Positions 5,402-13,231 are shown, numbered from the stretch's first letter. The stretch: DNA of 14,120 bases from Archangiaceae bacterium (GCA_043750125.1 JAYVCD010000043.1:1-14120); one strand, 5' to 3'. Translations and numbers: made by a program. The notes: generated from the letters alone by a model not told the origin.

Positions 5402-7594
5402 ATGACCAAAAAAACCAAGACGCCCGGGATCAGCAACGCAAAACTCGAAGCGCTCGAACACTTCCGCGCAAACTCTGCCGACGCGCTGCTGACCACCAAC
5501 CAGGGCGCCCGGATTTCCGACAACCACAACTCGCTCAAGGCGGGGCCCCGCGGCCCGACGCTGATGGAAGACTTCATTCTTCGCGAGAAGATCACCCACT
5601 TCGATCACGAACGAATTCCAGAGCGCATCGTTCACGCCCGCGGCGAAGGCGCGTTTGGCTACTTCGAGTGCACCAAGGAACTTTCCCGCTACACCCGGGC
5701 GAGCTTCTTGAACCAGGTCGGGCTGCGCACCCCGGTGCTGGTGCGCTTCTCCACTGTCGCCGGCAGCCGGGGCTCGGCCGACACGGTGCGCGACGCGCGC
5801 GGCTTCGCGGTGAAGTTCTATACCCAGCAGGGAAACTACGACCTCGTCGGCAACAACATCCCCGTCTTCTTCATTCAAGACGCGATGAAGTTCCCGGACC
5901 TCATTCACGCAGTGAAGCCCGAGCCGCACCACGAGATGCCGCAGGCCGCGTCGGCCCACGACACGTTCTGGGACTTCATCTCGCTGATGCCCGAGTCGCT
6001 GCACATGATCATGTGGGTGATGAGCGACCGGGCCATTCCCCGCAGCCTGCGCATGATGGAAGGCTTCGGCGTTCACACCTTCCGGTTCGTCAATGCCGCC
6101 GGCGTCTCGACCTTCGTCAAGTTCCACTGGAAGCCGAAGCTCGGCTCGCACGCGCTGACGTGGGACGAGGCGTCGACGCTGGCCGGGAAGGACGCGGACT
6201 TTCATCGCCGAGATCTCTGGGAAGCGATCGACAGCGGCGACTTCCCAGAGTGGGAACTGGGAGTGCAGCTCATTCCCGAGGCCGATGAGCACAAGTTCCC
6301 GTTCGACCTGCTCGACGCGACCAAGCTCGTCCCCGAAGAGATGGTGCCGGTGCTTCGCGTCGGCACGCTGGTGCTCAACCGGAACCCCGACAACTTCTTT
6401 TCCGAAATCGAGCAGGCCGCCTTCCACCCCGGCCACGTCGTCGATGGCATCGACTTCACCAATGACCCCCTGCTGCAGGGGCGGCTGTTTTCGTACACCG
6501 ACACCCAGCTCATTCGCCTGGGCGGACCCAACTTCCACGAGCTGCCGGTCAACCGGCCCCTGGCCCCGGTGCACAACAACCAGCGCGATGGCCTGGGCCG
6601 CCAGACGATCGACGTGGGCCGGGTGGCCTACGAGCCCAACACGCTCGCCCGCGGCTGTCCGATGCATTCGCCCGAGAAGCTCAAAGGGTTCGTCAGCCAC
6701 GCGGAGAAGATCGATGCCCACAAGGTCCGCGCCCGCAGCGGAAGCTTTGCCGACCACCTCTCGCAGCCGCGGCTGTTTCTGCACAGCCAGAGCCCGATCG
6801 AGCAACAGCACATCGCAGCCGCGCTCACGTTCGAGCTCTCGAAGGTCCAGACCGTCGACATCCGCAAGCGAATGCTCAGCCTGCTGGCGCAAATCGACAT
6901 CGACCTGGCGAAGAAGGTCGCCGATGGGCTGGGGCTGCCGGTGCTCAAGAGCGCGGTGATGCCTCCGAGCGCCTCCGACCCCGAAAACAACATCGTGCCT
7001 CCCAACCGCGCCACCGAGCTCGCGCAAGAAGACGACGACGGGATCAACAAGAAAGGCCGGGGCCTGCCGGACGATTCGGTCGCGCTCAGCATGGTGCGAA
7101 GCAACCCGGGTGGAATCAAAGGACGCAAGGTGGCGATCCTCGTGGCCGACGGCGTCGATGCGGCGCAGGTGGCGTCGATTACCCGTGAGCTCGAGGCGGC
7201 CGGAGCGCGGGTCGAGACGGTCGCGCCGCGCTTGGGGACGGTCAAGCCCGGCAAGGGCCCCGCCTTCGAGGCGATGCGCACGCTCGAGAGCACCCCGTCG
7301 CTCGTCTATGACGCGGTGGTGGTGGCCGGCGGGAAGGCAGCGGGCGATGCGCTGGCCGACGACGGCCGAGCGCTGCACTTCGTCGCCCAGGCCTTCAAGC
7401 ACCACAAGACCCTCGCGTTCTACGGCTCAGGGGTCGAGGTGCTGAAGGCTTCTCCGATTCGCTTCGTTGTTTCCAGCAGCGCGCACGGAGTGTTGATCGG
7501 CGATTCGTCGCCGGCCGCGCTCAAGACCCTGGTGCTGGAAATCGGCAAGCACCGCCACTGGGGTCGGCCCGGTGTCGAACGAATCCCCGTCTGA
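5402..7594 (+). CDS. katE: Large-subunit (clade 2) monofunctional catalase HPII with C-terminal DJ-1/PfpI-like domain, 730 aa
   Basis: FDHERIPERIVHARG (distal His), VRFSTVAGSRGSADTVRD, QAASAHDTFWDF, AAFHPGH, RLFSYTDTQ (proximal Tyr); C-terminal GRKVAILVADGVD...YDAVVVAGG...AFKHHK. Confidence 0.98.
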   Translation: MTKKTKTPGISNAKLEALEHFRANSADALLTTNQGARISDNHNSLKAGPRGPTLMEDFILREKITHFDHERIPERIVHARGEGAFGYFECTKELSRYTRASFLNQVGLRTPVLVRFSTVAGSRGSADTVRDARGFAVKFYTQQGNYDLVGNNIPVFFIQDAMKFPDLIHAVKPEPHHEMPQAASAHDTFWDFISLMPESLHMIMWVMSDRAIPRSLRMMEGFGVHTFRFVNAAGVSTFVKFHWKPKLGSHALTWDEASTLAGKDADFHRRDLWEAIDSGDFPEWELGVQLIPEADEHKFPFDLLDATKLVPEEMVPVLRVGTLVLNRNPDNFFSEIEQAAFHPGHVVDGIDFTNDPLLQGRLFSYTDTQLIRLGGPNFHELPVNRPLAPVHNNQRDGLGRQTIDVGRVAYEPNTLARGCPMHSPEKLKGFVSHAEKIDAHKVRARSGSFADHLSQPRLFLHSQSPIEQQHIAAALTFELSKVQTVDIRKRMLSLLAQIDIDLAKKVADGLGLPVLKSAVMPPSASDPENNIVPPNRATELAQEDDDGINKKGRGLPDDSVALSMVRSNPGGIKGRKVAILVADGVDAAQVASITRELEAAGARVETVAPRLGTVKPGKGPAFEAMRTLESTPSLVYDAVVVAGGKAAGDALADDGRALHFVAQAFKHHKTLAFYGSGVEVLKASPIRFVVSSSAHGVLIGDSSPAALKTLVLEIGKHRHWGRPGVERIPV

Positions 7595-7670
7595 GACCAA
7601 TTGACCCAATGAAACCAAAAAGCCACAGCCAGTCTGTTCCCGATGCAACCCGTGCGCAGCGCCGCGAAAC

Positions 7671-7686
7671 CGGCACAACCCTTGAA
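7671..7686 (+). promoter_or_regulatory. Putative sigma54 promoter (variant GA at -13/-12) of the general stress protein gene
   Basis: CGGCACA-ACCC-TTGAA has correct spacing but A replaces the -12 C. It lies 14 nt before ATG 7699, the same geometry as the STAS promoter. Confidence 0.5.
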
Positions 7687-7698
7687 ACATCTGCCCCT

Positions 7699-8247
7699 AT
7701 GCCCAACACCCAGAACGAAACCCAGGAGCAGGAACTCGCACCCGAAGGATCTCGCGCCCATCTGCGAACGGCGTTGAAGGAATTCAACACCATGATGGTG
7801 GCGACCTACGACAAGAAGGGAAAGCATCCGCGGCTTCACGCGCGCCCGTTGCTCGTCGCCCGGGTCGAGGAAGACTGCTCGCTCGTTTTCGTCACCCGAA
7901 TGGACGACCACAAGGCGGTCAACGGCGAGATGCAACCCGAAGACGGGACGGTGATCGCGCAGTCCCTCACCCGGCAGGTCTCGATGTTGGGCACGATCGA
8001 GTATTCGACCGACCGCAAGCTGCTCAACGAGGCCTGGAAGCTGCCGTTCAACCTGTTCTTCGGCAACGGGAAGGACGACCCGAACGTCTGCCTGATGGTC
8101 TTCAAGCCCCGCGACGCCGAGCTTTGGGACCTGTCGGGAAAGAAGGGCCTCAAGTTCCTGTTCGACGCCGCGAAGTCCCTGATTCAGCGCAAGACCCCGG
8201 ACTTCACCGGCGACCAACACGAGAAGCTCAAGCTTCACCGCGCCTGA
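7699..8247 (+). CDS. General stress protein, pyridoxamine 5'-phosphate oxidase-like FMN-binding split barrel (GSP26/YdaG-like); alternative start at 7609
   Basis: TMMVAT...LHARPL...LVFVT...HK...QVSMLG...DRKLLNEAW...FFGNGKDDPNVCLMVFKPRDAELWD pattern. Start 7699 preferred on promoter geometry. Confidence 0.85.
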   Translation: MPNTQNETQEQELAPEGSRAHLRTALKEFNTMMVATYDKKGKHPRLHARPLLVARVEEDCSLVFVTRMDDHKAVNGEMQPEDGTVIAQSLTRQVSMLGTIEYSTDRKLLNEAWKLPFNLFFGNGKDDPNVCLMVFKPRDAELWDLSGKKGLKFLFDAAKSLIQRKTPDFTGDQHEKLKLHRA

Positions 8248-8302: not shown

Positions 8303-9367
8303 CTACACCTTCGTCAACCACCCATGGGTGTCGGGCCGGGTGCCGCGCTGAATGCCCGAGATCTCTTCGTACAGCCGCCCCGCCAGCGGGCCCACTTCGC
8401 CCTTGTTGATGGTCAGCTTCACCTTGCCCCCCAACGCCAGCTCGCCGACGGGCGAAATCACCGCCGCGGTGCCGCTGCCGAAGACTTCCTTCAACGCGCC
8501 ACTGCTGTGCGCCTTTTGCAGCTCGGTCACCGTCAGCTGGCGCTCGACCACCTTGACGCCTGCCTCTTTCGCCAGGGCGATCACGCAGTCCCGGGTGACT
8601 CCGGCGAGAATCGAGTCCGACAGCGGAGGAGTGACCAGCTCATCGCCCAGGTAGGCAAAGAGGTTCATCGTCCCGACCTCTTCGATCTGCTCGTGCTTGG
8701 CCGCGTCGAGCCACAGCACCTGGTCGTAACCTTCCTTCTTCGCATTCTGTGCCGCGAGGAGACTGGCTGCGTAGTTCGCCCCGGCCTTCACCGCACCCAG
8801 GCCTCCGTGGGCCGCCCGGGTCTGCTCGCGCTCGACCCAGATTCGCACCGGCTTCACTCCGCCTGCGTAGTAGGCGCCCACCGGCGAGGTGATGACGAAG
8901 AACAGGTATCGCGAGGCCGGTCGCACCCCCAGGTAACCTTCCGAGGCAATCAGCGTCGGACGAATGTAGAGGGCCGTGCCTGCTTCCGACGGGACCCAAC
9001 TCTGGTCCACCTTCACCAGCTGGGTGATCCACGCCTGCATCAACTTCGGATCCACCGACGGCATGCACAGCCGCGGCGCTCCGCGTTCCATTCGCAAGCA
9101 GTGGTGCGCAGGACGAAACAGATTCACCCCGCCATCCGCGGCGCGAAATGCCTTCATCCCCTCGAACATCGCCTGCCCGTAGTGGAAAACCCCGGCGGCG
9201 GGATCCATCGGGAGCGGCCCGTAAGGCTCGATTCTCGCGTCGTGCCACCCCGACTCGGGCGAGTACTCGGCAAGTACCATGTGATCGGCAAATACCCGGC
9301 CGAAACCAAGCTCGGCTTCCTTCGACTTCGAACGGGGAGAGGTAGTGGTCAGAACTGGCAGTGACAT
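8303..9367 (-). CDS. ilvE: Branched-chain amino acid aminotransferase (PLP fold IV), 354 aa
   Basis: SD GAAGGAG 5 nt before ATG 9367. Motifs LGFGRVFADHM, FHYGQAMFEGMKA, LYIRP, KAGANY (PLP Lys), EEVGTMN, ILAGVTR, FGSGTAAVISPVG. Confidence 0.96.
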   Translation of the reverse strand: MSLPVLTTTSPRSKSKEAELGFGRVFADHMVLAEYSPESGWHDARIEPYGPLPMDPAAGVFHYGQAMFEGMKAFRAADGGVNLFRPAHHCLRMERGAPRLCMPSVDPKLMQAWITQLVKVDQSWVPSEAGTALYIRPTLIASEGYLGVRPASRYLFFVITSPVGAYYAGGVKPVRIWVEREQTRAAHGGLGAVKAGANYAASLLAAQNAKKEGYDQVLWLDAAKHEQIEEVGTMNLFAYLGDELVTPPLSDSILAGVTRDCVIALAKEAGVKVVERQLTVTELQKAHSSGALKEVFGSGTAAVISPVGELALGGKVKLTINKGEVGPLAGRLYEEISGIQRGTRPDTHGWLTKV

Positions 9368-9481
9368 GGATGCTCCTTCTGATCGCTCTTCTAGCCGCAA
9401 AGCCGTGCCACCTCGCAACCGATTCGAGCAGCACAGCCCGCCCCCCGAAGCCTTTGAGCTCGCCTCACATCCTGGCCCTCG

Positions 9482-10077
9482 GGTTCGAGCCGGGCGGACC
9501 TCGCGTCGCGGGCAGGGAAAACAGGCGGGTTCAGTGTCTTTCGAAACAGATGCGTCTTTCAGAAAGTACGGACTCAGTGCGCTTTACCGAGGACGAACCA
9601 CCGACCTGCCGGACCCGAAGCTCTTCCTTGCGTGGGTCCGGGCGGCGAGGCGGTTCGTTTCAGTGACCTTGGCCCTTTGACCACACCCTGATGTGGCGGG
9701 AAGGACAAGGTCGCTCCCACGGCTTCGAACAGGCGCTTCGAACGGCCGCCTTCGAGCGCCGCCGCTGATCATCGGTGCGCCGAGACCCGCTGTTTCCTCG
9801 ACCTGGTGTGGCTCACCCCCACTGGTGTTGATTCACCCCCATCGTTCGACGGTGAGCCTCACCACTGGGGGTAACCCACACCACCTCGGCGGCAAAATGG
9901 CCGTTCGAAGCGCTTCCAGAGGTTGTGGGGGCAAGTTTCGTGAACCTTCTTTCACCCGTTCAATGCAAACGGGCTCTCACCTTCTTCGATCGCCCGGTCC
10001 GGGCTCGGACTTTCCGATGACCCGTTTGAAAAGGTGGGACTTCCCCGGGGGACACTCCCGCCGCCGAGCACCGAACC
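9482..10077 (+). ncRNA. Candidate large structured non-coding RNA or structured repeat element, family unknown, boundaries approximate
   Basis: Abutting hairpins at 9534-9553, 9591-9660, 9662-9715, 9716-9929 (rod including a perfect 15-bp IR), 9955-9973 and 9975-10039. Non-Watson-Crick positions within stems are mostly G-U on the + strand. No credible ORF. Confidence 0.5.
9733..9913. repeat. Perfect 15-bp inverted repeat enclosing four copies of an 18-19-nt unit
   Basis: GCGCTTCGAACGGCC (9733-9747) pairs with GGCCGTTCGAAGCGC (9899-9913). Units: TGGTGTGGCTCACCCCCA (9804-9821,+), TGGTGTTGATTCACCCCCA (9823-9841,+), TGGTGAGGCTCACCGTCG (9847-9864,-), TGGTGTGGGTTACCCCCA (9866-9883,-). Confidence 0.9.
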
Positions 10078-10089
10078 ATCGCCGACCCG

Positions 10090-11199
10090 CTAAATCGAGT
10101 CGCCGTCGGCGAGCGCGACTTCCGGGGTCGGCGCGGCAAGAATCTCCTCGACCCTGACGGTCGCAAGATCCGAAGTGAAAAGCTTCATCAGCGCCAGCAT
10201 CTCAGCTCGGCCCAGCGACTGGTTCACGCCCCCGGCCCGCGCGGGCTGCAGCCACTCGAGGGCAAGCGAATTGGCCAATCGCCAAGCGGCCTGGGGCTTC
10301 CCCGCCGCGTGCTCCACTCGGACCGCCACCGCCCTTCGTCGCACCGAGTGGGTCGCCTCGGTCACCAATGCGAGCAGCGCCATCCCCACCCTCGGAGCCC
10401 CCACGCAGGTGCGCTCGACCGCGTCGAGCAACAGCGACTGGGCGGACCGATTGAAGGCCCCCGACGAAACCGTCACCGGCTGTCCCAGCGCATTTCGGCA
10501 CAGCGCTTCGAGCACCGCGCGATGCACCCGCTGCACCGACGTGGTGCCCGCCCGCAGATCCGCGGCGAGGATCGCCAGCGCGCCCGAAGGGTCGATGCTG
10601 AACGCCCGCTGCGCCAGGCCCAACGCGTGGCCCTGCCCTTCCTTCACCCTATCGAGCCACGCCTTCACTTCTCCTGGCGTCGGCGGAGGGGCTTCGTCCT
10701 TTCCGTCCGCCTCCAGAACCAGCGCCTCCACTTCCGCCAACTGCTCGACGAACTGGGGCGAGTTGGTGCGGTTGACGATCACCGCGAGCAGTCCCCGCAG
10801 GGCCGCTCCGAAGGCGGTGCTCGCGTCATGACGGGTGGCGATCGTCTCGAAGTTGTTTCGTTCCTCTTCGAGCCGGTCGAGAAATTCGGTCGCGAACGGG
10901 CTGGGGCAGCTGTGGGCACAGAGCGCGACGTTCGCCAACAGCACCGCAGCCAGGGCCCGCCCCTTCGCCGGCTCAGACTCGATGAGCTTCATCAGCGGCT
11001 CGACGACGTGCGGCGCAATCGGAGCCAACAGCCCCCTCGAGACCAGATGATCTTCGAGCTGCTCGAACCCTTCTTCACGAATCAGCGGCAGCTCATCGGC
11101 GAGCGCGGCGAGCCATTCGGGCACGATGGTCGCATCGTTGCCCAGCGCGTCCTTGTGCGCGGCCCAATCGATGCTGAAGAGGTTGAACGGGAAGCCCAT
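10090..11199 (-). CDS. Hypothetical all-alpha protein with HEAT/ARM-like N-terminal region, 369 aa
   Basis: IDWAAHKDALGNDATIVPEWLAALA...REEGFEQLEDHLVSRG...PHVVEPLMKL resembles a degenerate DWxxLxHAYG/VPxLL/HQG HEAT-like family. Ala/Leu-rich helical composition. Start at 11199 follows a TACAAT box. Confidence 0.72.
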   Translation of the reverse strand: MGFPFNLFSIDWAAHKDALGNDATIVPEWLAALADELPLIREEGFEQLEDHLVSRGLLAPIAPHVVEPLMKLIESEPAKGRALAAVLLANVALCAHSCPSPFATEFLDRLEEERNNFETIATRHDASTAFGAALRGLLAVIVNRTNSPQFVEQLAEVEALVLEADGKDEAPPPTPGEVKAWLDRVKEGQGHALGLAQRAFSIDPSGALAILAADLRAGTTSVQRVHRAVLEALCRNALGQPVTVSSGAFNRSAQSLLLDAVERTCVGAPRVGMALLALVTEATHSVRRRAVAVRVEHAAGKPQAAWRLANSLALEWLQPARAGGVNQSLGRAEMLALMKLFTSDLATVRVEEILAAPTPEVALADGDSI

Positions 11200-11204
11200 A
11201 CAAA

Positions 11205-11210
11205 ATTGTA
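11205..11210 (-). promoter_or_regulatory. Putative sigma70-type -10 box (TACAAT) giving a leaderless transcript of the HEAT-like gene
   Basis: Minus strand reads TACAAT-TTTGT-ATG, with no SD sequence. Confidence 0.55.
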
Positions 11211-11225
11211 GGGCGCACTCTAACC

Positions 11226-11573
11226 GTGGGCGAGACTGACCGCGTGAGGCCAATTGCCAAGCGCGGCGTCGCAGCCAAAACCGGAAAGGGCAAAGCCCAG
11301 TCCAAGCGCATCGATGCCCTGCAATACCAGTTGATGTGCAAAGCCCTGCTGAAGGCCATTCCCCGGACCCAGGCCGGGGTGCGGTTCATGGACCTGTTCG
11401 ACACCATCGGCAGCGTTCGGCCGCGCGTGAGCCTGCCGGGTGGAGGAAGCCTGTCGTGGTATCTGACGACCGTGAAGCTCGACCTCGAGGCCCGCGGGTT
11501 GATCGAACGGGTGCCCCATTCAGTCCCGCAACGCCTGCGGCGTCCCCCCCGGGCGCGCAAGGAGCTGGCTTGA
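11226..11573 (+). CDS. Small basic conserved protein, DUF6958-like (probably winged-helix fold); exact start uncertain
   Basis: Recognisable motif GSLSWYLTTVKLDLEARGLIERVP..PQRLR, preceded by IDALQYQLMCKALL and a F..L helix. Family name recalled from memory, not from a search. Confidence 0.75.
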   Translation: MGETDRVRPIAKRGVAAKTGKGKAQSKRIDALQYQLMCKALLKAIPRTQAGVRFMDLFDTIGSVRPRVSLPGGGSLSWYLTTVKLDLEARGLIERVPHSVPQRLRRPPRARKELA

Positions 11574-13147
11574 TGAAGACCGCCACGTTCGTCGTTCTGT
11601 TTTCGCTTTCTGCGTTCGCAGCCGAGCGGAGGCCGGTGCTGGCCATCTTTCCTCCCTCGGCCGCCGACCCTGCGGCCAAAGAGCTCGCGCTGCTGATTCA
11701 GGCGCGCACCACTGCCGTCCTGGGAACCACCGACCGGTACTCGGAAGTGCACCTGAAGCAGATCCTGGCGATGGCCGCCCGCGAAGGGCTCGACATCGAA
11801 GCCCTGGACCCGAGGAATTCCGAGCGCGCCGCGAAGCTGCTCGGCGCTGAACGCATCGCGTGGGGGCAGCTGGAACGAAACGAAAAGGGCTTCAAGCTCA
11901 AAGCCGTCGTGACCGATTTGAAGAAGCTCACCCGCGTCGAAGTGCAGCTGGGCACGGACCTCGCGATCGCCGTCGAAGCGGCCGCGACCACGCTGTCTCA
12001 CGCGCTGCTGCGGCTGGAAGGGGTCTCGGGGTTCAAGACGCCTCCGGCGGTGTCGACCAAGTCGGCCCCCGCGATGCAGGCGTTTAGCCACTGCTACGCG
12101 ACGGTGGTGCGTCAGCCGATGGGAATCGAAAACCCCGCCACGCTCGATGGCCCCGAGCTCGAAGTCGCCGTCACCCAATGCAAAGAGGCGCTGATTGCAG
12201 ATCCGAAGTTTGCTCCTGCGGGTGCGGCCCTCGCTCTGGCGTACGCGATGTTGGGCAATGACGCCGAAGCGGTGAAGACCCTGGCCGAGCTCAAGGGCAC
12301 GGACCTCGACCAGCCGCTGTATTGGATCGCGCGATTCTGGGAAGTCACCCGCTACCAGAGCAACGACGCCGGCGAGGCGCTGCTGCGTGAGGCGATCGCC
12401 AAGCGCCCCGGCTTTCTGCTCGCGCGCAGCTACCTGGGCGAGCTGCTCGAGACTCTGGGTAAGCACGACAAGGCCGCGATCGCCTGGCAGGACTACGCCG
12501 CGATGGCCCCCGCGGATCCCTTCGTGCTGGGCCAGCTGGGGAAGTCCCTGGCACGCCTGGGAAAACACGACGAGGCGATTGCGTTGACCCAGAAGGCGCT
12601 CGACCTCGAGCCACGCAGTCGCGAGATGCGCCTGCAGCTGGCCAGCCGCTACATCGATGCGAACCGGGTGGATGAGGCCCTTCCGCTGCTGACCCCGATG
12701 TCCGAGGAAGCCGACGTACGGGGGGAAGTGCTGTTGCGATTGGGGTGGGCCTACTTCCTCAAAGGCTCGATGGAGCTGGCTGGCCCCTTGTTCGTCCGGG
12801 CGATTGCCCGCGCGAAGTCTCCGGGCGAATGGCGCACCCGAGGCCGGGCCCACTACGACCTGGCGCTGGTGCACGTGAAGAAAAATCCGGACCGAGCCGA
12901 AGCCGCGCTGAAGGCGTCGCTGCTCACCGGATTCAAGACCCGGGAGCTCGACCCGTCGCTGACGAAGATTGCCCAGAAGCTCGATCGGGCCGAATTGTCC
13001 CAGGCCGAGAAGAAGGGAGCGAAGAAGATCGCGACCGCGCCTGCGCCCCGGGAAGTGAGTCTCTTTCCGGTCAACAAATTCGGAGAGGTCGATGCAGCCG
13101 CGAGTAAGCCGAAGCCGCCCGAAGGCTTCCTGCTCGTTCACTTCTAG
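11573..13147 (+). CDS. Exported tetratricopeptide-repeat protein with N-terminal TolB-N/CsgG-like alpha/beta domain, 524 aa
   Basis: TGATG overlap with the upstream stop and SD AAGGAG. Signal peptide MKTATFVVLFSLSAFA; VLAIFPP...AAKLLGAERIAWGQL. TPR motifs such as LGKSLARLGKHDEAIALTQKALDLEP and LGWAYFLKG. Confidence 0.88.
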   Translation: MKTATFVVLFSLSAFAAERRPVLAIFPPSAADPAAKELALLIQARTTAVLGTTDRYSEVHLKQILAMAAREGLDIEALDPRNSERAAKLLGAERIAWGQLERNEKGFKLKAVVTDLKKLTRVEVQLGTDLAIAVEAAATTLSHALLRLEGVSGFKTPPAVSTKSAPAMQAFSHCYATVVRQPMGIENPATLDGPELEVAVTQCKEALIADPKFAPAGAALALAYAMLGNDAEAVKTLAELKGTDLDQPLYWIARFWEVTRYQSNDAGEALLREAIAKRPGFLLARSYLGELLETLGKHDKAAIAWQDYAAMAPADPFVLGQLGKSLARLGKHDEAIALTQKALDLEPRSREMRLQLASRYIDANRVDEALPLLTPMSEEADVRGEVLLRLGWAYFLKGSMELAGPLFVRAIARAKSPGEWRTRGRAHYDLALVHVKKNPDRAEAALKASLLTGFKTRELDPSLTKIAQKLDRAELSQAEKKGAKKIATAPAPREVSLFPVNKFGEVDAAASKPKPPEGFLLVHF

Positions 13148-13231
13148 TCGGACCCGTACCATCTCGCCTCGATTGTCGCGGACAGTCACAGCGCGCACCG
13201 CTGGGCGAGCCCGTCATGCCTTGAAGAGGTG

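Follow-up and report, generated by a model that had tools for sequence, protein, structure and literature searches.

Background

A gap between two minus-strand genes of an uncultured member of the Myxococcaceae is filled with sequence of strong predicted fold, and the question it raises is whether this sequence is the gene of a structured RNA or an element of another kind. The gap lies in a stretch of 14,120 nucleotides (nt) of DNA (GCA_043750125.1, JAYVCD010000043.1:1-14120), called the window below, which is contig C43 of the metagenome-assembled genome (MAG) G000 (6.17 Mb in 460 contigs, 89.4% complete). It separates an ilvE-like branched-chain aminotransferase gene from a hypothetical gene of 387 amino acids (aa), here named ORF387. 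Its length is 671 nt when counted from the longest open reading frame (ORF) of ilvE, 8303-9418, and 722 nt, as correctly stated in the initial annotation of this DNA, when counted from the in-frame ATG at 9367 inside that ORF. For positions 9482-10077 the initial annotation had proposed a single multi-domain non-coding RNA (ncRNA) of about 600 nt, read from the plus strand and perhaps of a new class, with the RNA of a non-autonomous mobile element as a fall-back.

The evidence presented here leads to a different answer. The block at 9482-10077, together with a copied flank reaching to about position 10135, is probably a lineage-specific insertion of a composite, non-coding dispersed repeat whose modules follow each other in the order A-H1-M-H2-C. 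By analogy, it is best read as a non-autonomous mosaic repeat resembling bacterial interspersed mosaic elements (BIMEs) and BOX elements, made of previously undescribed repeat families of a known kind of element. A full-text literature search found no report on intergenic repeat families of myxobacteria.

Results

The block is a mosaic of five dispersed modules

A BLASTN search with positions 9400-10120 against the genome of origin returned 31 matches besides the self match; the block is not unique. Coverage by matches from elsewhere in G000 is 0 up to 9481, 2-9 over 9482-9657, 17-18 over 9665-9711, 3 over 9722-9785, 5-8 over 9786-10048 and 0 beyond 10110. The ends originally chosen for the block, 9482 and 10077, are indeed those of the sequence with paralogues, coverage beginning at 9482 and falling near 10075. 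Five modules were resolved by iterated nhmmer on G000; their copy counts are lower bounds in this fragmented and incomplete assembly, in which repeats break contigs. The parts of the block are as follows.

9482-9502, plus strand: 5' extension of the repeat (variant I), common to the copies on C416 and C339; BLAST matches begin at 9482 or 9483
9503-9643, plus strand: module A, a dispersed repeat of about 140 nt with three conserved sequence boxes; 10 nhmmer hits in G000, 12 with the model R1 described below
9659-9713, no strand assigned: H1, a palindromic hairpin repeat of about 55 nt; 16 loci, matched on both strands
9716-9785, plus strand: module M; 3 copies by nhmmer, on C43, C196 and C44
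9799-9888, no strand assigned: H2, a palindromic hairpin repeat of about 90 nt with compensated arms; 16 loci, of which 4 lie at contig ends
9895-10052, plus strand: module C, a repeat of about 160 nt, always 3' of A; 6 copies; it holds the invariant hairpin CCCGTT/AACGGG at 9955-9973
10053-10077, plus strand: 3' tail of the repeat, common to the copies on C337, C325 and C167; for most copies the BLAST match ends at 10052-10075

Composites running from A to C were found at six loci (C43, C337, C416, C167, C231 and C325). They have one module order, the same junctions and 72-86% identity, and H1, M and H2 are variably present among them. Module A occurs without C on C119, C339 and C363, a fragment on C196 that reaches from mid-A to M is 94% identical, and H1 and H2 each stand alone, in either orientation, at about 10 further loci. 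All copies are intergenic and of mixed orientation, and the housekeeping genes next to them are unrelated; among these are a pyruvate-carboxylase-like gene, ddl, a kinase, a polyketide synthase and a 5'-nucleotidase-like gene. Six of the eight A-bearing loci are downstream of a same-strand gene. No neighbouring gene is shared between copies, tblastn with four flanking proteins having found no paralogue beside any other copy. The first ~32 nt of module M repeat the start of module C in inverted orientation, and it is from this inversion that the helix initially described as a rod arises.

Some features of individual modules were also recorded. Four of the 16 H2 copies are at the very ends of contigs (C415:17-101, C232:11911-11996, C207:77-155 and C434:1-74); H2 repeats therefore break the assembly and their true number is probably higher, a point of practical use in annotating these MAGs. 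Positions 9722-9747, in module M, hold a 13-nt unit in tandem (GCTTCGAACAGGC / GCTTCGAACGGCC), and TTCGAA sites are frequent across the whole block. The sequences GGTTCG/CGAACC at the ends of the C43 copy were considered as terminal inverted repeats and discarded, as they are not present in the other copies.

A protein-coding repeat can be ruled out. When six copies were read in six frames, 35 of the 36 readings held 1-7 stops, the one exception being the open frame +3 on C231; 1-nt indels separate copies of the repeat, and the 5 ORFs of the gap matched 0 Pfam families at E up to 0.1. A decayed gene or a small ORF was rejected on the stops in the frames and the lack of a Pfam family, and a codon-like reading of an A box on the minus strand is broken by indels of 1-2 nt.

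The block is absent from orthologous sites in related species

G001, G002, G003 and G004 are species of the same genus as G000. The features that border the block in the window, and that allow these genomes to be compared with it, are listed here.

8303-9418, minus strand: ilvE-like branched-chain aminotransferase gene (longest ORF; Pfam Aminotran_4, E 2.9e-38)
9383-9436, minus strand: conserved segment upstream of ilvE; homology to the loci of the congeners stops at 9436
9437-9481, no strand assigned: unique spacer, without paralogues in G000, the BLAST cover being zero in the rest of that genome
10078-10135, no strand assigned: host flank, made of a 12-nt spacer, the ORF387 stop codon (10090-10092) and the last 14 codons; ancestral here
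10090-11253, minus strand: ORF387, syntenic with ilvE within the genus

Orthologues of ilvE with 83-91% aa identity were found in G002, G003 and G004, and in each of them ilvE adjoins an ORF387 orthologue (72% identity by tblastn in G003, 51% in G004 and G002). Towards ilvE, nucleotide homology of the window to these loci reaches as far as 9436; it begins again at the ORF387 stop, leaving about 57, 15 and 29 nt between the homology ends in G003, G004 and G002 respectively, compared with 653 nt here. No module was detected at the three ilvE loci, and the spacer at 9437-9481 gave no alignment to the spacers of G002, G003 or G004. In G001, which is 78% complete, ilvE had no match. Since the spacer between ilvE and ORF387 is short in the relatives, the block at 9482-10077 is an insertion, and the sites in G003, G004 and G002 are empty. 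A second locus, on C119, has a block of A and H1 between ddl and a PEGA-domain gene; there the aligned flanks are ~309 nt apart, compared with 44-62 nt in G004 and G002. Presence/absence polymorphism at orthologous sites is consequently seen in 3 of 3 congeners at ilvE and 2 of 2 at ddl.

Contigs from three sequencing runs, one of which may be the source sample, match positions 8900-9641, 9324-9704 and 9678-10600 without difference; the junctions are therefore reproducible and not an error of this MAG alone. Reads of four DNA runs contained joints only of paralogous forms, and no empty site at the ilvE locus.

A leader, riboswitch or T-box of ilvE was rejected, as the initial annotation had also concluded for a leader, because the block is absent 5' of ilvE in the three congeners, where a different segment of 54 nt (9383-9436) is conserved.

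Two further observations concern the neighbours of other copies. The PEGA-domain gene on C119 (L007:1815-3185, minus strand), beside the A+H1 copy, has a His-rich and highly repetitive C-terminal half, gives staggered BLAST self-matches with its orthologues and has a weak Pfam match to Plasmodium_HRP. In G001, a weak match to module A (C114, L038:2385-2443, E 0.047) lies just 5' of a gene orthologous to the one beside the C416 composite and is oriented opposite to the G000 copy; it may reflect either chance or a separate insertion into the same intergenic site.

Host coding sequence has been copied with the repeat

The 3' flank of the C43 copy (10060-10135) includes the ORF387 stop codon and the last 14 codons of that gene. 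The C-terminal peptide of ORF387 (...APTPEVALADGDSI*) is kept in G003, G004 and G002, which are without the insert; the C-terminus is ancestral at the ilvE locus. About 65 nt of this flank recur directly 5' of module A on C167, twice, and on C231, with local alignment scores of 58, 52 and 45, whereas 1000 random windows scored 23.3 +/- 4.8 and at most 43. The congeners' versions of the flank score 16-32, and the copied flank resembles the G000 version instead. The presence of the ORF387 end on C167 and C231 means that these copies, at least, derive from a locus of the C43 type.

On C167 the order is flank-A-H2-C-flank-A', the last A being truncated, which amounts to 1.3 tandem units, and on C231 there is an additional flank together with the first 16 nt of A. 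The latter is a tandem duplication at C231:14510-14680 (L005), with a unit of ~80 nt (gene-end flank and 16 nt of A) placed directly 5' of the full composite. Copying takes along host DNA 3' of module C and makes permuted or tandem junctions, whether directly as DNA or by way of a read-through intermediate, and this flank-carrying behaviour is unlike that of a conserved RNA gene family.

Both strands of the block fold equally well

The minimum free energy (MFE) of the plus strand of 9482-10077 is -285.5 kcal/mol, compared with -242.6 +/- 8.1 kcal/mol in dinucleotide shuffles (z -5.31), and 0 of 100 shuffles did as well. The stems listed in the initial annotation are all present in the sequence and in this structure, and its expectation of a fold better than that of shuffled sequence is borne out. 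The minus strand, with an MFE of -291.0 kcal/mol, has a z of -5.47. There are 21 G-U pairs in the plus-strand structure and 19 in the minus-strand structure, and the two have 107 of ~209 pairs in common. As the two folds are equally strong and G-U use is symmetric, nothing marks out the plus strand, and the selection on that strand which had been deduced from G-U stem positions finds no support. A repeat finder returned 29-nt arms at 9799-9827/9860-9888 and a perfect 15-nt inverted pair at 9733-9747/9899-9913 (100% complementarity).

Neither a sigma-70-like promoter nor an intrinsic-terminator-like site (0 each) was found on either strand of 9300-10250 by a scan that covered those consensus types only. 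The Rfam 15 covariance models gave 0 matches at gathering score in the whole window, in agreement with the initial annotation, which had recognized no hallmarks of RNase P, tmRNA, 6S, SRP, T-box or group II intron. On 9300-10200, with E up to 10, four eukaryotic miRNA or snoRNA models matched at chance level (15.5-23.2 bits, against cut-offs of 45-100). A known RNA family was consequently ruled out, no Rfam model reaching its gathering threshold.

The folding energy of the block is the sum of its palindromes and of helices specific to this copy, and there is no one-strand architecture under selection. Nested palindromic repeats yield z values near -5 on both strands, a trap for the interpretation of folding energies.

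Only the palindromes and one short hairpin keep their structure among copies

The MFE structure of the C43 copy was mapped on an alignment of the six composites, and the share of alignment cells that are paired was scored. The helices of H1 (88-93% of cells paired) and H2 (91-98%) persist, and so does the 6-bp hairpin CCCGTT/AACGGG (91.7%), which shows no covariation. Several others are not kept: the two nested closing helices (51.9% and 50.0%), the GGACGAACC/GGTTCGTTT domain at 9591-9660 (53.6% and 68.3%), the rod closure CCCACGGCTTC/GAGGTTGTGGG (55.7%) and the TCTCACCTT/AAGGTGGGA helix (74.4%, 9 of its 15 pairs being broken in one copy or another). Of the 6 composites, only 2 have the helix of 17-18 bp, since the 5' arm of this helix is part of module M. 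The closing helices and the large domains are specific to the C43 copy. For the whole MFE structure, covariation among the six paralogues was 0.070 compared with 0.063 in shuffles, a value reached by 37 of 500, with the structure taken from one row of the alignment, which favours it.

The two palindromes were then aligned over their own loci. For H2 (n=13), the structure conservation index (SCI) from consensus folding was 0.74 on the plus and 0.65 on the minus strand, with column-shuffle z values of -12.1 and -11.2; 4 of 26 pairs are changed on both sides, and the plus strand has 12 G-U cells and 11 A-C cells. For H1 (n=15), z was -6.2 on the plus and -7.7 on the minus strand, with 15 G-U and 4 A-C cells on the plus strand and 17 and 4 on the minus strand. 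H1 and H2 are conserved hairpins, with both strands scoring alike.

Modules A and C behave differently. The core of A in 17 copies from two species had an SCI of 0.01 (plus) and 0.08 (minus), with shuffle z of +1.45 and +0.55; the nine copies of the genome itself gave SCI of 0.34 and 0.43, with z of +0.46 and -0.79. RNAalifold predicted 0 pairs on the 31 copies of module A gathered by R1, a sequence-only model of this module. Module C (n=6) had SCI of 0.36 and 0.33 and z of -0.5 and +0.2, with no conserved structure. A and C are conserved as sequence, without conserved structure on either strand. Two local candidates within A were rejected. A helix closing the invariant A box (GCTCCACC...CCGAC) had -12.12 kcal/mol with its own flanks and -11.71 kcal/mol with swapped flanks, and 939 of 5000 permutations were as low; a hairpin in the variable centre of A was as stable as dinucleotide shuffles (mean z -0.43 and -0.13, n=27).

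The five modules occur separately elsewhere, the strands show no asymmetry and A and C show no covariation, and the proposal of one plus-strand ncRNA of a new class is not upheld.

The A family extends to other Myxococcaceae

A BLAST search with the 596 nt of the block found matches in 4 of 41 relatives, the genome of origin included, and R1 found matches in 8 of 151 Myxococcaceae genomes, belonging to 5 of 51 genera. The R1 counts were 12 in G000, at least 21 in G001, 1 in G003, 2 in G054 and one weak match in each of four others, with no match in G002 or G004. The A units of G001 form tandem or inverted pairs; they are intergenic, without H1, H2 or C, and at loci different from those of G000. 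A search of species-representative genomes for the exact A-box pattern found 5 stretches, all in G001. The same pattern was found on 4 metagenome contigs, three of which score the same as G001 copies and one of which comes from another relative, and on 0 viral contigs; the C-module pattern was found on 0 metagenome contigs.

Discussion

The results above describe an inserted, modular and dispersed repeat that carries host sequence with it, so the mobile-element fall-back of the initial annotation was broadly right: the block is a lineage-specific insertion of non-coding repeat copied with flanking DNA. Within the composite, A and C are modules that are conserved in sequence and move as a pair, and H1 and H2 are independent palindromic hairpin repeats that lie nested between the two. 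The composite would spread as DNA, either as a non-autonomous element or as a duplicative repeat, and a likely route would be a tandem, circular or read-through intermediate that takes 3' flanking host DNA along. An effect on the host, if there is any, would most plausibly come from the hairpins within a minus-strand transcript running from ORF387 to ilvE; it is the near contiguity of these two genes in the relatives that points to minus-strand mRNAs.

Known systems offer several points of comparison. BIMEs are intergenic and non-coding mosaics of repetitive extragenic palindromic (REP) sequences with other motifs; REPs are imperfect palindromes of 20-40 bp present in more than 100 copies per genome, and BIMEs often lie between or after same-strand genes (PMC2817692, PMC3733652). 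The block resembles these enterobacterial elements in being an intergenic mosaic of palindromes with other motifs, whose units occur alone and, at six loci or more, in combination, and in its frequent position between or 3' of same-strand genes; it differs in that its units are of ~55 and ~90 nt instead of 20-40 bp and are found at 16 loci each, as lower bounds, instead of in more than 100 copies. Furthermore, the palindromes are without the end tags of REPs (GTAG at the palindrome end in 0 of 13 H2 and 0 of 15 H1; CGTC in 0 of 13 H2 and 1 of 15 H1), no transposase of the REP-associated tyrosine transposase (RAYT) type was found in the incomplete G000, and the non-palindromic modules A and C, of 140-160 nt, make up most of the composite. 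A REP system with a RAYT was therefore rejected, there being neither a RAYT nor end tags in H1 and H2.

The BOX elements of Streptococcus pneumoniae are modular repeats of the form boxA-boxB-boxC, present in about a hundred copies and without a transposase of their own. The composite shares with them fixed terminal modules (A and C), variable inner ones (H1, M and H2), an intergenic and non-coding nature, a high capacity to fold and the lack of a transposase. Unlike BOX, it belongs to another phylum, has unrelated sequence, is 2-4 times longer, has about 6 copies and shows flank capture and permuted tandem junctions. H2, with its two inverted arms around a short centre, its dispersal between genes and its compensated arm changes, is similar to REP doublets (REPINs) and to miniature inverted-repeat transposable elements (MITEs) that have long inverted ends, such as the Correia elements; but no RAYT, no target-site duplication above control and no related autonomous insertion sequence (IS) were found, and the copy number is low. 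With OLE, GOLLD, ROOL, HEARO/omega RNA and ORF-less group II introns the block has in common its size range and strong predicted fold and, with HEARO/omega RNA, its multiple copies; it differs from these large structured ncRNAs in having no Rfam match and no covariation outside the palindromes. No IscB, TnpB or reverse-transcriptase gene adjoins any copy.

A number of observations weigh against reading the block as a mosaic mobile repeat. No transposase or other mobilising gene was linked to it, and no long ORF adjoins a copy of A or C. No autonomous element with matching ends was found by BLAST, which ends shorter than ~20 nt would escape, and an IS200-type Y1 transposase (PF01797) was not found in G000 by a search that was positive in 6 of 14 control genomes. 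The composite is without terminal inverted repeats, and target-site duplication at H1 and H2 does not exceed the control (mean 2.4 and 2.5 nt, compared with 1.8 and 2.1 nt). The copies, few in number and old (72-86% identity), do not demonstrate current mobility. Only 2 loci yielded resolved empty sites, a third one (C416) being syntenic on one side only. Finally, there are signs of constraint: the arms of H1 and H2 show compensated changes, as expected of an RNA hairpin, and the A boxes do not vary among about 30 copies from two species, while the sequence between them drifts.

This invariance suggests, from the alignments, selection acting on, for example, a protein-binding site or a single-stranded RNA motif, and together with the compensated changes in the hairpins it leads to the first alternative, a domesticated cis-acting element whose hairpins or boxes act in mRNAs (in stability, processing or termination, as for REP and BIME) or as protein-binding DNA. 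The position of most A-bearing loci just 3' of a same-strand gene would fit it, and so would the placement of the block between same-strand genes that are nearly contiguous in relatives, and thus within a minus-strand transcript. The orientation bias is weak (6 of 8), however, the copy in the window is antisense to both genes and no terminator-like site was found. Copy number also varies widely among congeners (12, at least 21, 1, 0 and 0), unlike that of a conserved regulatory system, and to our knowledge no binding protein or phenotype has been described for the repeat. We consider this alternative unlikely.

A second one, to which we would give a still smaller chance, is that A...C is a flank-capturing non-autonomous element copied via a single-stranded read-through intermediate, which would begin at A and continue beyond C into the host sequence. 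The candidate intermediate would be a reverse-transcribed plus-strand RNA or a rolling-circle DNA strand. Such read-through would explain the ORF387 stop and 14 codons on two other contigs, and the permuted tandem junctions; were it correct, a bacterial non-coding element akin to a short interspersed nuclear element (SINE) or a Helitron would have the plus-strand RNA as its transposition intermediate and the A boxes as its recognition sites.

That the paralogues are functional copies in a family of structured ncRNA genes of ~450-600 nt, read from the plus strand, is very improbable. The strength of the fold, the conserved sequence boxes of six paralogues and the compensated changes in H1 and H2 speak for it, and the lack of an Rfam family would make it new. 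Against this, the minus strand folds equally well with symmetric G-U use, H1 and H2 stand alone at ~10 other loci each, A and C have no conserved structure, and the inter-domain and closing helices are lost in paralogues; moreover, neither strand has a promoter-like or terminator-like site, the block is absent in 3 of 3 congeners that hold the orthologous site, and copies carry host coding flank.

The least probable explanation is plain segmental duplication and gene conversion by host recombination, without element-directed mobility, which would suit the absence of a transposase, terminal inverted repeats and target-site duplication, the divergence of the copies, and the tandem partial units and captured flank of C167 and C231 as products of unequal or illegitimate recombination, but which could hardly give by chance 6-12 or more dispersed copies plus two nested palindrome families of 16 loci each, or an A family of at least 21 copies at different loci in the sister species G001.

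The interpretation as a composite mosaic repeat removes a false candidate for a new large class of ncRNA. It also documents modular intergenic repeat families (A, H1, H2 and C) in an uncultured lineage of the Myxococcaceae, with clean empty sites in sister species, and provides one clear example of a repeat that has taken host coding sequence with it. The result bears as well on the spread of repeats that have no transposase.

Neighbouring genes

ORF387 has no family match in Pfam or NCBIfam. The segment upstream of ilvE at 9383-9436, conserved in four species, is identical at 52 of 54 positions to G003, 45 of 49 to G002 and 43 of 49 to G004, and its minus strand contains TGGCAC...TTGC. We take this motif to resemble a sigma-54 -24/-12 element; its spacing is GG-N9-GC, one base under the canonical N10, and the congeners share this spacing.

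The window also has two long overlapping ORFs, one on each strand, at 11093-13198 (minus) and 11336-13147 (plus). The plus-strand ORF matches TPR-repeat families such as PEP_TPR_lipo (E 2.5e-14) and the minus-strand one has no family match; the latter, of 701 aa, is probably spurious because family matches fall only on the plus-strand ORF. A similar pair lies on the other side of ilvE, where the ORF at 7420-8238 (minus), without family match, overlaps one at 7609-8247 (plus) that has weak matches to pyridoxamine-phosphate oxidase.

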